From Escherichia phage vB_EcoM-673R5, in sequence record ON470615.2: a stretch of 64,000 nucleotides of DNA. One strand, given 5' to 3'. The notes under the pieces were generated by a model. The model worked only from the letters and a program-made list of their open reading frames with translations. It made no database searches and was not told the DNA's origin. A program made the position numbers and the translations under genes. Positions 1,995 through 51,022 of the stretch are shown one piece after another (position 1 is the first letter of the stretch; each line of letters opens with the position of its first letter).

Positions 1995-2216
1995 ATGGCT
2001 ACTATCCCTACCCCAACTCATCCTGAATTTATCTGGCGCTTTTACTCCTGCCAAAAACGTCACTATCACTTCGTTATTGCACCGACAGAAGATGAGGCCC
2101 GCTCTCAGCTTCCTGACGCCCCATGTATTTTCTCTGCCCGTTTTTCCACTGATTCACGCAATTCTCTCAGTTACTGGTGCCTCCCTGTTAACGCTTCTGC
2201 TCAGGAGGGACTATGA
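1995..2216 (+). CDS. icd: Icd-like protein, copy A
   Basis: 73-aa ORF with AAGGAGG RBS; stop overlaps ant start (ATGA); paralogous to the icd-like sequence at 49763 (shared EFIWRFYSC.K.HYHFVIA.TEDEARSQLPD). Confidence 0.6.
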   Translation: MATIPTPTHPEFIWRFYSCQKRHYHFVIAPTEDEARSQLPDAPCIFSARFSTDSRNSLSYWCLPVNASAQEGL

Positions 2217-3330
2217 GAACGTCATTAGTCACCCGTGAAGAGATGATCGAGGCAATTGAACAGCACACTGCCTGTATCAGTACCAGGGATATACCAAGCG
2301 TTATTGCCAACTACTTCATGATCACCAAACAACTTTACCGGAGAAAGGACAAGAACGCGGTTCACCGTATCCTGTTGTCTGATATCCGCGAATACCTGCT
2401 CGAACAGGGTCATCTGAATTACGCAACCGCCGCAGCCGAAGCACGCAAGGAGGCACACAGAATGAAAGCAACTAACGTTAAATCAGAAAAAATTCATGCA
2501 CCTTCAGTTCAAGAATCGGAGCTGGTGGTTGTTCAGAATCAGTCTGATGAAATTCCCGTTCTGGAATGGCAGGGAGTGCGTGTAGTGACAACCGAGACTC
2601 TTGCTAGAGGGTATGGGACAGAAACAATCCGTATTCGCCAAAATCATCATGAGAACAAAGTACGCTTTGTTGAAGGGAAGCACTTTTTCAAAGTTGAAGG
2701 AGAATCATTGCGCGAGTTGAAGCACAGAGTAGCTTTAAACTACTCTGTAAAAATTGCTCGCAATGTTCGCTCACTCACCCTCTGGACAGAACGCGGCGCA
2801 GCCGCCACGCTAAAATGCTCGAAACCGATCAGGCATGGGCATTCTTTGAAAAACTGGAAGACAGCTACTTCCGACAAAAAGAACAGCAACCGATCGCAAT
2901 CCCCCAGACGCTTCCTGAAGCCCTACGCCTGGCTGCCGAACTGGCTGAACAAAAGCAACTTCTGGAACAGAAAGCCCACCAGCTAAATCAGCAGCTGGTG
3001 GCCGCCGCTCCTAAAGTCGATTTTGCCGACCGGGTATCAGTAGCTAAAGGGATCCTGATTGGGAATTTTGCAAAGGTTGTTGGACTTAAACAAAACGCGC
3101 TGTTTGTCTGGTTACGGGAGAACGGCATCCTGATAGCGTCCGGTGGACGTAAAAATGTGCCGTTCCAGCAGTACATCAACGCGGGGTATTTCACGGTGAA
3201 AGAAGTGGTGCTGGATGATGAAGATGGCTACCAGATACGGTTGACGCCTCAATTAACGGGTAAAGGCCAGCAGTGGTTGACGCGTAAACTGCTCGATGCT
3301 GGCTTGTTAAAACCGGTGGCGGCTGAATAA
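2213..3330 (+). CDS. ant: antirepressor Ant-like protein, copy A; frame broken once near 2800
   Basis: ORFs 2213-2986 and 2815-3330 join into about 372 aa; antirepressor-like core (LTLWTERGAA / MLETDQAWAFFEKL); C-terminal KilA-C-like region near-identical to 50600-51022. Confidence 0.6.
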
Positions 3331-47862: not shown

Positions 47863-47884
47863 ATTCTACGAGTAGTCATTTGTT
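47863..47884 (-). promoter_or_regulatory. putative late promoter
   Basis: Minus strand AACAAATGACT-actcg-TAGAAT. Confidence 0.35.
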
Positions 47885-48019
47885 CATTGAGTGGGAATAT
47901 TGCCGTCCGGGAGTAATATGGTATCATTAAGTTAGAGTAGGTAGTGTAGATGGAATGAGGAGTATCATATGGTTATCACACAATCAGGTTGCTTTGAGTC
48001 AGGTTGTTTTGAGTAAAAC

Positions 48020-48050
48020 AATAAAACGCCCTTTAATGGGCGTTTTGTTA
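48020..48050 (-). terminator. intrinsic terminator
   Basis: AAACGCCC-tttaat-GGGCGTTT hairpin with T-runs on minus strand. Confidence 0.5.
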
Positions 48051-48078
48051 AAACTTAAATTGACTATCCTTTCAAATA

Positions 48079-48444
48079 CTATTTTAATTCTATGTAATTT
48101 TTAAATTCCCTCTCATATTTATACATGATGTTATCAAATCCTTCCATTACATCAACGAATTGTTGTGAACATTCCGGCTTCCAAGGCGTACACTTACGAA
48201 CCATATCCATTTTATTCTTATCCTTCGTTGTATCGACTAAGGATAGGTACCCTATAAAATTCATCATCTGAACAGGATCTTGATTTGTGAATATATATTT
48301 GACGTTTTGCTTAGTAGGTGAAAAAGAATCAAAAGCAGGGAACATATATTCACCAGAAAAAGAGAGTGCAGCATCAATGACGTCAGTTGCTGGAGTGCAG
48401 TTGCTCAGAATTGGCACTAACCTAAAATTAGCACCGGAGCACAC
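48079..48444 (-). CDS. hypothetical small protein, AT-rich islet
   Basis: 121-aa ORF, low GC. Confidence 0.4.
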   Translation of the reverse strand: MCSGANFRLVPILSNCTPATDVIDAALSFSGEYMFPAFDSFSPTKQNVKYIFTNQDPVQMMNFIGYLSLVDTTKDKNKMDMVRKCTPWKPECSQQFVDVMEGFDNIMYKYEREFKNYIELK

Positions 48445-48520
48445 TGCATATATATCATCCCTTTTTTTAGTTTTAACAGAGAGTTTTGTTTTGAATCCAA
48501 CACTTTCAATTTGATATAAT

Positions 48521-48889
48521 TTAGTGGCGTTGCATTTTCCCTGGAGTAAATAACTCTACAATTGGTTCATTATTCACCATTCTTATGGATTTTATTTCAC
48601 CATATAGAATTGAAATTGTATTCCATTTTTCCTGAGCGGCAAATTCATTATCTTTAAAATCATTAACCAACTCAGATGGAAAATGATAACCAAATTGATT
48701 ATTCATTGCTTTCGAGGCAAATCCAGACAAATAGAACACCCTTACTAAATCATAATCTTTTTTTGAAGTAGAAAGCCAATCTGGCAATTTATTATCAGCT
48801 ATCGCGCTTCCAGCAAAAATAGCACAACAAAATGTTATTACATTAAATAATTTCATTTTCCATTCACTCATTAATCGGTTTAAACTCAC
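48521..48889 (-). CDS. small secreted protein
   Basis: Internal start MKLFNVITFCCAIFAGSAIA looks like Sec signal peptide. Confidence 0.4.
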   Translation of the reverse strand: MSLNRLMSEWKMKLFNVITFCCAIFAGSAIADNKLPDWLSTSKKDYDLVRVFYLSGFASKAMNNQFGYHFPSELVNDFKDNEFAAQEKWNTISILYGEIKSIRMVNNEPIVELFTPGKMQRH

Positions 48890-49199
48890 TAATCAATTCA
48901 CCAAGACTATTTGGGTATGCTTTATAAATAACATACTCCGAAGAGCCATCTGAATATTGGTAAACACCATAACAAACCAGTTTATTTATTCCTTTCTGAA
49001 TAGTTTTTTGATTATAAGAATCAACCACTGTTATTCCATATGACGATAATATTTCGTTATATTCTTCAATAAGAGCTTTTCTTGTTTCCACTGAATTGCA
49101 ATCTACCTTCGAAAAGTCAACTTCATCAGCAAAAACATTAAATGTTAAAAAGGAAAGCACTAAAAACAAACGAATCAGCATAAATCCACTCCTACGCAT
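48864..49199 (-). CDS. small secreted protein
   Basis: MLIRLFLVLSFLTFNVFA signal-peptide-like N-terminus. Confidence 0.4.
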   Translation of the reverse strand: MRRSGFMLIRLFLVLSFLTFNVFADEVDFSKVDCNSVETRKALIEEYNEILSSYGITVVDSYNQKTIQKGINKLVCYGVYQYSDGSSEYVIYKAYPNSLGELISEFKPINE

Positions 49200-49202
49200 G
49201 GA

Positions 49203-49334
49203 TTAATAGTCATTGATCGCAAAGGCGTAAACGTGCCCAAGGTATTTCGTATAATCGGTACAAATCTCCTTTACGCTTGATGCTGCATTAACAGTCCCGG
49301 CCATAAATAATAACGGTAGTAATAGTCTTCTCAT
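49203..49334 (-). CDS. 43-aa secreted peptide
   Basis: MRRLLLPLLFMAGTVNA signal-like N-terminus then 26 residues with one Cys; not in ORF track (below 60 aa). Confidence 0.3.
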   Translation of the reverse strand: MRRLLLPLLFMAGTVNAASSVKEICTDYTKYLGHVYAFAINDY

Positions 49335-49429
49335 TATAATCTCACCTGCCTTATAACCCATTTAGGGTACATATTTTCGCCTTTAAAAAAAGAGGTTATT
49401 AGATCCATTTGTGCATTTATTGCACAAAT

Positions 49430-49446
49430 AATGCTCTAATAAATTT
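49430..49446 (+). promoter_or_regulatory. C1 operator upstream of ImmI-like module
   Basis: AATGCTCTAATAAATTT. Confidence 0.5.
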
Positions 49447-49636
49447 GTATTTTTAAGTCGCGAATGCTATCTTTTCGCATCATATTGACCTTTTAATCGT
49501 TCAGGCTTATAGTTCCGCCGTCGTAGCAAATTCTGCGACCGGGTTTAGCAGCCTGAATACGGGAATGCGGACAACCGCAGATATCCGATATTGCGGAATT
49601 TTTGTGTCCGTAAAACCACGTTACGCCCGAATTATG

Positions 49637-49713
49637 GTGGGGCGTGATGGGGAGGCTTCGGCCTGCTGGTTTCATTCGTGCCAGTCTGCTAACCCCGTCA
49701 CGTCCTGCCACCC
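49637..49713 (+). ncRNA. c4: c4-like antisense immunity RNA, copy B
   Basis: 77-nt element GGTGGGGCGTGATGGGGAGGCTTCGGCC...GCCACCC; homologous to 1859-1938 but divergent in internal segments. Confidence 0.45.
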
Positions 49714-49762
49714 GTTTAGCAGCGGGGCGCAGGTTGTTAAACCTACGAATGAGGCCGTAACT

Positions 49763-49978
49763 ATGGTTAATGCCAATCCTTGCGCACGCCAAGAATTCAT
49801 CTGGCGTTTCTATTCCTGTAAAAAACACCACTATCACTTCGTTATCGCAGCAACAGAAGACGAAGCACGCTCTCAATTGCCTGATGGCCCCTGCATTTTT
49901 ACTGCCCGTTTTTCAACTAACTCGCGCAATTCACTTAGTTACTGGAGCCTCCCCTTCTCTGCCGACGTTCAGGGGGTT
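49763..49978 (+). CDS. icd: Icd-like protein, copy B (stop missing; reads in frame into ant)
   Basis: MVNANPCARQEFIWRFYSCKKHHYHFVIAATEDEARSQLPDGPCIFTARFSTNSRNSLSYW; junction at G5 run differs by 2 nt from copy A. Confidence 0.5.
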
Positions 49979-51022
49979 ATGAAAACACCTCTCGTCACCC
50001 GTAATGAAATAGCCGAAGCGATCGCCTTGCATACTGCCTGTATGCCGACACGGGAGATCCCCGGCGCAATTGCTAACTATTTCATGATAACCAGACGTTT
50101 TTATACCCGAACAGATAAGGCTGTGATCAACAGGCTACTGATAGCCGAGATCAGGGATTATTTGATTGAACAAGGACGTCTACGTTACGCAACAGTGGCA
50201 GCAGAAATGAGAAAGGAGGCACATAGAGTGACCGGTAAAAATTTGAATGTTGAGAAACCAGCACCTGTTACGTCAGCTACGCCAACACCAGCCGTGAATG
50301 TCATCCCCAACACCGGAGACACAATCGACAGCCAAACATTGTTGAAGATGGTCAATGAGGCACGCAAGTTATGTGGAGAACCAGAGGTTAGAAACAATAA
50401 ATTCATCGAAAAAATACTCGATGAACTTGAAGGTGAATTTTACACAAAAAGTGCAAAATCCCATGGCACAAGGGCTGGGCGCTCTTTTGAGGTCATCACC
50501 ATGACCTACAAACAAGCCTTGCGAGTCGCCGCGCGTGAGTCAAAAGCGGTCCGCCGTTCGCTGATCGACAAACTGGAAGAATTGCAGCAGGCAAACTCCC
50601 CTGCCCCATCGATCCCCCAAACATTACCAGAAGCTCTACGCCTGGCTGCCGAGTTGGCAGAACAGAAAATGCAGTTGGAACAGCAGCTGGTGGCCGCAGC
50701 CCCTAAAGTCGATTTTGCCGACCGGGTATCAGCGGCCAATGGAATCCTGATCGGGAACTTTGCAAAGGTCGTTGGACTTAAGCAAAACGCCCTTTTCTCA
50801 TGGTTGCGCCAGAACGGCATTCTCATGGCTTTTGGTGCGCGCAAAAACGTACCGCGCCAACAGTACATCAACGCCGGGTATTTCACGGTGAAAGAAGTGG
50901 TGCTGGATGATGAAAATGGCTACCAGATACGGCTGACGCCCCAATTAACGGGTAAAGGCCAGCAGTGGTTAACTCGCAAGCTACTTGATGCTGGTTTGTT
51001 AAAACCAGTAGCAATAGGTTAA
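49979..51022 (+). CDS. ant: antirepressor Ant
   Basis: About 347 aa from MKTPLVTRNE; C-terminal KilA-C-like domain shared with kilA and with copy A. Confidence 0.65.
   Translation: MKTPLVTRNEIAEAIALHTACMPTREIPGAIANYFMITRRFYTRTDKAVINRLLIAEIRDYLIEQGRLRYATVAAEMRKEAHRVTGKNLNVEKPAPVTSATPTPAVNVIPNTGDTIDSQTLLKMVNEARKLCGEPEVRNNKFIEKILDELEGEFYTKSAKSHGTRAGRSFEVITMTYKQALRVAARESKAVRRSLIDKLEELQQANSPAPSIPQTLPEALRLAAELAEQKMQLEQQLVAAAPKVDFADRVSAANGILIGNFAKVVGLKQNALFSWLRQNGILMAFGARKNVPRQQYINAGYFTVKEVVLDDENGYQIRLTPQLTGKGQQWLTRKLLDAGLLKPVAIG

Follow-up and report, generated by a model that had tools for sequence, protein, structure and literature searches.

Between the morphogenesis operon and ImmI of Escherichia phage vB_EcoM-673R5 lies a short AT-rich islet that a preliminary description had read as four consecutive genes for small exported proteins. 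What is this islet, how many genes does it hold, and what might its products do? Here, the window is the whole stretch of DNA that was analysed, 64,000 nucleotides of sequence record ON470615.2. Our explanation, which as a whole we consider very probable, is that the islet is the simA-simB-simC (superimmunity) operon of a P1-like plasmid prophage. The operon would run on the minus strand from the Oc4 side to a terminator upstream of LPsit, SimC would be its exported exclusion protein, and the apparent split of simC would be artefactual.

Identity and boundaries of the islet

The interval 47900-49450 has a GC content of 0.331, compared with 0.476 for the whole window and about 0.48-0.49 for the flanks on both sides. 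It is the lowest-GC 1.5-kb stretch of the 64 kb (0.33, where the median is 0.48), and so it was rightly called AT-rich. The four minus-strand open reading frames are all present at the sizes first given (121, 111, 105 and 43 aa). On the plus strand no gene is supported, as the islet has merely short unconserved reading frames there, and no Rfam family was found within 47900-49450. The reading frames and the elements that bracket them are as follows.

47863..47881, minus strand: late promoter LPsit of the downstream pmgC-tub-pmgB-sit operon, with -10 element TAGAAT at 47868..47863
48046->48023, minus strand: intrinsic terminator that closes the sim operon, AAAACGCCC-ATTAAA-GGGCGTTTT and then a T run
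48079..48444, minus strand: reading frame of 121 aa, GTG start
48521..48889, minus strand: reading frame of 122 aa, or of 111 aa from the ATG at 48856 (48521..48856)
48864..49199, minus strand: reading frame of 111 aa, or of 105 aa from the ATG at 49181 (48864..49181)
49203..49361, minus strand: reading frame of 52 aa, or of 43 aa from the ATG at 49334 (49203..49334)
49430..49446, plus strand: C1 operator Oc4 (Op51), start of ImmI, AATGCTCTAATAAATTT
49630-49715: c4 RNA, Rfam match

Both edges bear out the earlier placement of an intrinsic terminator on one side and of a C1 operator and ImmI on the other. The terminator has a 9-bp stem (-14.6 kcal/mol, z -4.7) and is kept in P1, in phage vB_EcoM-813R1 and in the plasmid p50579417_1. 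Oc4 has one mismatch to the consensus. Past it, Rfam matches to RF03163 and RF01695 that exceed their gathering scores mark the a1/b1 targets and the c4 antisense RNA. The coordinates of LPsit were carried over from the P1 annotation through a gap-free alignment.

The homology search and the comparison with P1 that had been recommended gave a clear identity. By megablast, the islet matches phage P1 over its full length at 94.8% DNA identity and vB_EcoM-813R1 at 97.3%, and its identity to many P1-like plasmids of E. coli, p50579417_1 (NZ_CP033882.1) among them, is 99.8%. The best plasmid and E. coli matches differ from it by 3 gap positions alone. In the P1 record the interval holds simC, annotated as 'superimmunity' (264 aa), and the smaller genes simB (111 aa) and simA (52 aa), with pmgC and LPsit on one side and Oc4, c4, icd and ant on the other. 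Because the aligned stretch carries this annotation, we identify the islet as the P1 sim operon. simA, simB and simC are each orthologous to their P1 counterparts. They sit between pmgC/LPsit and the Oc4/c4 end of ImmI and are transcribed away from ImmI. The location first reported, between the morphogenesis operon and ImmI, is correct. The sim operon is an already known system, and its low GC, its variability and its recent acquisition among P1-like phage-plasmids have been described (PMC9603915; PMC6906374).

The P1 operon (NC_005856 46786-48070, M34382) resembles that of the window in locus, gene order, strand, flanks, terminator and signal peptides. The two differ by about 5% in sequence, and the SimC proteins are about 95% identical once two bases are restored to the window. 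They also differ by two homopolymer deletions in the window simC, which we judge artefactual, by a 15-bp tandem duplication and a 23-bp insertion in the spacer between the terminator and LPsit, and by a 9-bp inverted repeat beside Oc4 that the window has and P1 lacks. The plasmid p50579417_1 and about 137 other sim-carrying P1-like phage-plasmids are closer still and differ from the window just by indels of the sequencing-error type. p50579417_1 has 0 mismatches in simB and simC, and its simC is intact (WP_024166536.1). More distant sim-like operons occur in other P1-like phage-plasmids, L007 and L009, where a 179-aa protein is followed by a SimB-like protein (55-59% identical) and a SimC-like protein (39% identical). 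As in the window, these operons lie upstream of pmgC-tub-pmgB-sit and adjoin icd/ant, and all of their proteins have signal peptides and conserved cysteines.

Interruption of simC and sequence quality

Our reading departs from the preliminary description in the number of genes, which we put at three. The 121- and 111-aa reading frames are the C- and N-terminal halves of simC.

48079..48856, minus strand: simC, precursor of 259 aa from MKLFNV (264 aa in the P1 annotation), broken into an N half (48521..48856) and a C half (48079..48444)
48538..48542: first frameshift site, plus-strand CCCC(TGG) in the reference and CCC in the window, overlapping a CCWGG (Dcm) site
48458..48462: second frameshift site, plus-strand CCCC (AAAAAAAGGGG on the coding strand) in the reference and CCC in the window

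As given, the simC reading frame of the window is interrupted by two 1-nt deletions. Alignment with P1 places them in two G4 runs, each of which lacks one G. The first deletion closes the N-terminal reading frame after residue ~111, and the second lies 80 nt downstream. When the two bases are put back, the result is an unbroken 259-aa SimC that matches the P1-type cluster representative at 247 of 259 residues.

Could the two halves be expressed separately, as members of a set of four independent genes for small secreted proteins? Both reading frames are there in the raw sequence, yet several observations make this reading scarcely credible. The 121-aa frame is the C-terminal part of simC in its own frame. 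It has a GTG start without a Shine-Dalgarno sequence, it has no signal peptide, and in related genomes it has no start codon of its own. The two frames are collinear with a single protein of 259-264 aa, as seen in P1, 138 plasmids and homologues that are 39% identical. Additionally, the OB-fold domain predicted for SimC (see below) spans the break.

The quality of the sequence was surveyed by aligning all of the window with p50579417_1, its closest relative among complete plasmids, over about 68 kb. This gave 62 mismatches, mostly in the tail-fibre region; outside that region substitutions are almost absent. The alignment also contains 97 indel events, and in 85 of these it is the window that lacks bases. 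Of the window's deletions, 64 fall in homopolymers 3 nt or longer and 12 in 2-nt runs, and 10 coincide with CCWGG (Dcm) sites. Half of the reference coding sequences (23 of 46) are frameshifted in the window, most of them with 0 mismatches. Among these are sit (1231 aa, 8 gaps), the c1 repressor gene (4 gaps), parB and the gene for lysozyme. The simC deletions were found in none of the other records, 304 plasmid and 293 E. coli genome matches. Of 40 records sampled from 138 plasmids, 38 have simC as one uninterrupted frame by tblastn.

We judge the simC deletions to be artefacts because the same class of deletion is spread over the window, with substitutions nearly absent, and because relatives have an intact frame. 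The pattern is most probably the signature of uncorrected long-read assembly error and not of gene decay. Judging from these sequence comparisons, simC is almost certainly intact in the real element, and the islet would then comprise three genes.

It is very unlikely, in our view, that simC has truly been pseudogenised by two independent frameshifts, which would leave an islet of simB, the simA remnant and two dead fragments, with exclusion lost. Both deletions are present in the sequence as given, the simC of vB_EcoM-813R1 is also annotated in two pieces (through different lesions), and sim is dispensable for lytic growth, all of which would fit such a loss. However, the same deletion class hits half of the genes of the window, c1 and parB included, while substitutions are essentially absent. 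This is unlike natural decay and is incompatible with a maintained plasmid prophage, and the two lesions occur in no other record. Programmed frameshifting was also considered and rejected, as two -1 lesions 80 nt apart leave the frame unrestored, the relatives have a single reading frame, and the error class is found window-wide.

The chief value of this analysis is therefore a correction: the apparent four-gene structure stems from homopolymer deletions that hit half of the genes of the window. Other findings that rest on reading frames from this window need to be rechecked against a polished relative.

The three Sim proteins

Coordinates of the two smaller genes are given here.

48864..49181, minus strand: simB, 105 aa from an ATG preceded by TAGGAG (in P1, 111 aa from 49199)
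49203..49334, minus strand: simA, 43 aa from an ATG with the Shine-Dalgarno sequence AGGTGAG (in P1, 52 aa from the upstream ATG at 49361)

Three Sec-type signal peptides had been proposed for the islet. The quoted N-termini are present, and all three pass a rule-based check: each n-region is basic, the hydrophobic core has 10 or more residues, and the cleavage site is of the small-X-small kind. The mean Kyte-Doolittle value of the three hydrophobic cores is 2.35-2.67. We ruled out a lipoprotein reading for all three, as the lipobox [LVI][ASTVI][GAS]C is absent and the sites are of the AXA type. For SimA the signal peptide is MRRLLLPLLFMAGTVNA|A, with cleavage at VNA|A, and for SimB it is MLIRLFLVLSFLTFNVFA|D, with cleavage at VFA|D; neither has a lipobox. 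That of SimC, MKLFNVITFCCAIFAGSAIA, has K2 in its n-region, a hydrophobic region with a mean Kyte-Doolittle value of 2.67, no lipobox, and cleavage at AIA|D at residue 20. Thus, the rule-based check indicates a cleavable Sec signal on SimC, and this feature is conserved in its homologues. The description of the products as small exported proteins holds with respect to export, on these signal features. It does not hold with respect to size for the effector SimC, whose precursor has 259 aa.

SimC belongs to a very narrow family. When 1.84 billion cluster representatives were scanned exhaustively with HMMER, 13 matched, several of them fragmentary. Among the diverged members, just P0002 (83% identity) and P0017 (39%) are full length, and P0026 (28%) is a partial match. 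The full-length relatives whose context was examined (L007 and L009) lie at the same locus. In the alignment, the signal peptide, an NDFxxNExAAxxKW/Y motif and four cysteines (precursor residues 140, 154, 223 and 230) are conserved, and the N-terminal hydrophobic segment and the four cysteines are kept in homologues down to 28-39% identity. These four conserved cysteines fit with an oxidising periplasm and with disulfides.

From profile matches and a structure model, we infer that mature SimC has a central tRNA_anti-like OB fold (residues ~55-160) followed by a helical C-terminal domain. The Pfam family PF12869 matches P1 SimC at 19 bits (E 1.1e-3), under the gathering threshold of 23.5 bits, and matches the distant homologue P0026 at 25.9 bits, above it. 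The simC fragments of the window gave no PF12869 match. In the AlphaFold2 model of SimC, residues 60-160 have pLDDT values of 70-84; the overall pLDDT is 58 and the C-terminal domain is unreliable. The OB barrel of this predicted model superposes on PDB 3f1z, the solved PF12869 structure. That structure is a 'putative nucleic acid-binding lipoprotein' of Klebsiella, whereas SimC has no lipobox and has an extra C-terminal domain of ~100 aa. The viral structural matches to the SimC model are tRNA_anti-like proteins and lipoproteins, and one BFVD match is annotated 'host cell surface-exposed lipoprotein', an Ltp-type name. The alignment profile of SimC gave only spurious eIF4A matches in the PDB (E 0.02). 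Overall, the evidence supports SimC as an exported, non-lipidated and probably disulfide-bonded protein with an OB-fold core. PF12869 itself is a family without known function.

SimB is 105 aa long and shows 0 mismatches to the closest plasmid. Its mature form would have about 87 aa and two conserved cysteines. We regard it as a separate small periplasmic protein with a predicted cystatin/NTF2-like fold and a putative accessory role. SimB homologues are also found where SimC is absent, as orphan genes on chromosomes and on unrelated elements.

The 43-codon frame had been counted as an ordinary gene, and it appears instead to be a truncated one. SimA and the N-terminus of a 215-aa secreted protein of phage vB_EcoM-Ro157c2YLVW share 90% identity over 41 aa. 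SimA is also homologous to the N-terminus of the 179-aa proteins that head the sim-like operons of L007 and L009, and in the profile phrog_3933, which has 213 positions, it aligns with positions 1-41. By tblastn, P1-type simA copies cover just 27% of the long form. The DNA homology to the long form stops at about codon 49, where the ribosome-binding site of simB starts. L007 and L009 have a complete first gene (179 aa), of which P1 and the window keep just the first ~40-48 codons; these are simA. On sequence grounds, simA thus appears to be the 5' remnant of a gene for a secreted protein of 179-215 aa.

Other database searches gave little. Pfam matches of SimA to Ecm33 (E 0.18) and of SimB to TcpS (E 0.07) were dismissed as noise. 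NCBIfam and PDB sequence searches with SimA, SimB and SimC gave nothing useful, and none of the three matched PADLOC-DB at E <= 1.

Exclusion function and variability of the locus

Superinfection exclusion was among the functions first suggested for the islet, and this is the function attached to the sim operon by the P1 annotation and the literature. Citing papers call simC a superinfection exclusion gene (PMC2409434), state that sim gives P1 superinfection exclusion (PMC9177967) and that Sim may prevent the injection of superinfecting phages' DNA into the cytoplasm (PMC8546580), and group Sim with T4 Imm and P22 SieA as blockers of phage DNA translocation (PMC9952470). By these accounts and the GenBank annotation, the exclusion function of P1 sim is already established experimentally. 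Receptor masking had been offered as another possibility; the same papers place the Sim block at DNA translocation instead. By CRISPRi, lytic growth does not require simA, simB or simC (PMC10695390). Looking for open-access accounts of Sim processing, we found only citations, and in the literature we found no resolved molecular mechanism of Sim.

Based on these data, we propose a model for SimC. SimC would be synthesised as a 259-aa precursor, exported by the Sec pathway and cleaved after AIA20. It would then stop superinfecting P1-type phage at the translocation of DNA into the cell, a step taken from published P1 experiments. Since SimC has an inferred OB fold and four conserved cysteines that suit periplasmic disulfides, we propose that it would act in the periplasm on the ejection pathway. 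It may do so by binding a component of that pathway, which could be the phage ejection proteins, the DNA or its conduit, or a host inner-membrane factor. Proteins, sugars and DNA are all among the ligands of OB folds, so the fold of SimC does not fix the mechanism.

T4 Imm, P22 SieA and Ltp of S. thermophilus phage TP-J34 are, like Sim, described in PMC9952470 as phage-encoded proteins that act at the envelope and halt DNA translocation after adsorption. They have no sequence relationship to Sim (no Pfam, PADLOC or NCBIfam match). Imm and SieA are inner-membrane proteins, and Ltp is a lipoprotein. SimC, in contrast, would be a soluble exported protein with a predicted cleavable SPase I signal.

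The locus itself varies among P1-like elements and is a swap site for cassettes that encode different secreted proteins. When the window is compared with P7, homology is lost directly beside Oc4 and regained just upstream of LPsit, so that Oc4 forms the right edge and LPsit the left edge of a variable cassette. At this locus P7 has upf50.5 and upf50.0. Upf50.5 is a lipoprotein that has a glycine-zipper region and resembles TraT weakly, with a match below threshold, and Upf50.0 is a DUF5384 protein. Ro157c2YLVW has a long simA and a gene for a 158-aa secreted protein. Four types of cassette were seen: the simA remnant with simB and simC; long SimA with the 158-aa protein; the 179-aa protein with SimB-like and SimC-like proteins; and the P7 lipoprotein with the DUF5384 protein.

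Do such cassettes serve mainly host fitness or envelope modification, as in lysogenic conversion, with the exclusion seen in clones an effect of over-expression? The orphan SimB homologues and the outer-membrane-type lipoprotein and DUF5384 protein of the P7-type locus could be taken in this sense, and the Sim phenotype was reportedly first described with multicopy clones. Against this, exclusion is the sole experimentally reported function in the papers cited above, and SimC is confined to P1-like elements, judging from the 13 HMMER matches and from the context of its full-length relatives in L007 and L009. We therefore consider a primary role in host fitness unlikely and retain exclusion as the function of the operon.

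We tentatively suggest, as a possibility we would not yet favour, that the Oc4-LPsit interval may be a dedicated swap site for alternative cassettes of exported envelope proteins, each perhaps with its own exclusion specificity. SimC might then represent an uncharacterised class of periplasmic OB-fold exclusion proteins that capture either the DNA or part of the ejection apparatus. What our analysis adds to the known sim system is modest, namely the OB fold of SimC, the fold of SimB, the simA remnant and the swap-site locus. The OB fold of SimC, the cystatin/NTF2-like fold of SimB and the simA remnant at the cassette swap site offer experimental handles on a periplasmic block of myovirus DNA entry.

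The frequency of the sim cassette was counted in 304 plasmid records that match the flanks. The cassette is present over at least 80% of its length in 137 of them, and SimC is encoded in 141. These counts agree with the published designation of sim as variable region 4 (PMC9603915).

Exchange of gene cassettes between LPsit and Oc4

We found that the interval between the late promoter LPsit and the C1 operator Oc4 is a swap site that holds alternative cassettes of exported proteins. Its coordinates in the window and those given for two further compared loci are as follows.

LPsit-Oc4 swap interval
Window, 47885-49429
Locus L006, 1183-2558
Locus L010, 1333-2700

The P7 cassette encodes a glycine-zipper lipoprotein, which has a weak match to TraT (E 7e-5, below cut-off), and a DUF5384 protein. 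In phage vB_EcoM-Ro157c2YLVW the interval carries a long SimA and a 158-aa secreted protein. P1-type simA (49203-49334, minus strand) appears to be a 5' remnant, about 40-48 codons long, of a secreted protein of 179-215 aa. Full-length forms of that longer protein occur in Ro157c2YLVW, in Cronobacter phage JK004 and in diverged P1-like plasmids (L007 and L009).

Homologues of SimB also stand alone (44-62% identity), one on a 5-Mb chromosome, where it adjoins a DUF3313 lipoprotein gene, and one on an element of about 82 kb, where it adjoins an LprI-domain protein. We did not find simC near either gene.

Stand-alone SimB homologues
Locus L014, 4001-4447
Locus L011, 4001-4351

Non-coding sequences flanking the sim operon

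A perfect 9-bp inverted repeat, ATTTGTGCA-N5-TGCACAAAT (49407-49429), immediately adjoins Oc4 and falls where the P1 annotation places the -35 element of PsimA. The window and phage vB_EcoM-813R1 have this repeat; P1 and Ro157c2YLVW lack it. At the other end of the operon, the spacer that separates LPsit from the sim terminator (47925-48012) differs from that of P1 and 813R1 in two ways, each shared with the reference plasmid p50579417_1: 15 bp are duplicated in tandem (CTCAAAACAACCTGA / CTCAAAGCAACCTGA), and 23 bp are inserted. Within the operon, a published in-silico scan placed two neighbouring Arg-box-like sequences, putative ArgR sites, in simC and a third one at the simA/simB junction (PMC2409434).

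Arg-box-like sequences from that scan
P1 coordinates 47270, 47906: simC and simA/simB junction

Sequence quality and neighbouring reading frames

Comparison with the near-identical plasmid revealed about 85 short deletions in the window, located in homopolymers or at CCWGG sites.

Example sites of the deletion pattern
1787, 3482, 7221, 16275, 23224, 30617, 44167, 49976, 57673, 62635

These deletions frameshift half of the reference genes (23 of 46), including c1, parB, sit, the lysozyme gene, ref and cin. From this pattern, the source looks like an unpolished long-read assembly; therefore, ORF-based findings anywhere in the window need a renewed check.

Two GG indels, an insertion at 49562 and a deletion at 49976, distort the c4-icd-ant1 frames. 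The 485-aa ORF at 49565-51022 (plus strand) is an artefactual fusion; the reference plasmid has two distinct, overlapping genes here, icd (73 aa) and ant1 (347 aa). An isrK match (Rfam; 49520-49603, plus strand) overlaps the a1/b1 leader upstream of c4 and is sub-threshold (41.5 bits versus a gathering score of 50).

A second icd/antirepressor (KilAC) module, additional to the ImmI copy, lies beside c1. This arrangement has also been described in RCS47-type P1-like plasmids (PMC6906374).

Second icd/antirepressor module
Window, 2213-3330 and upstream
NZ_CP033882.1, 26438-27912
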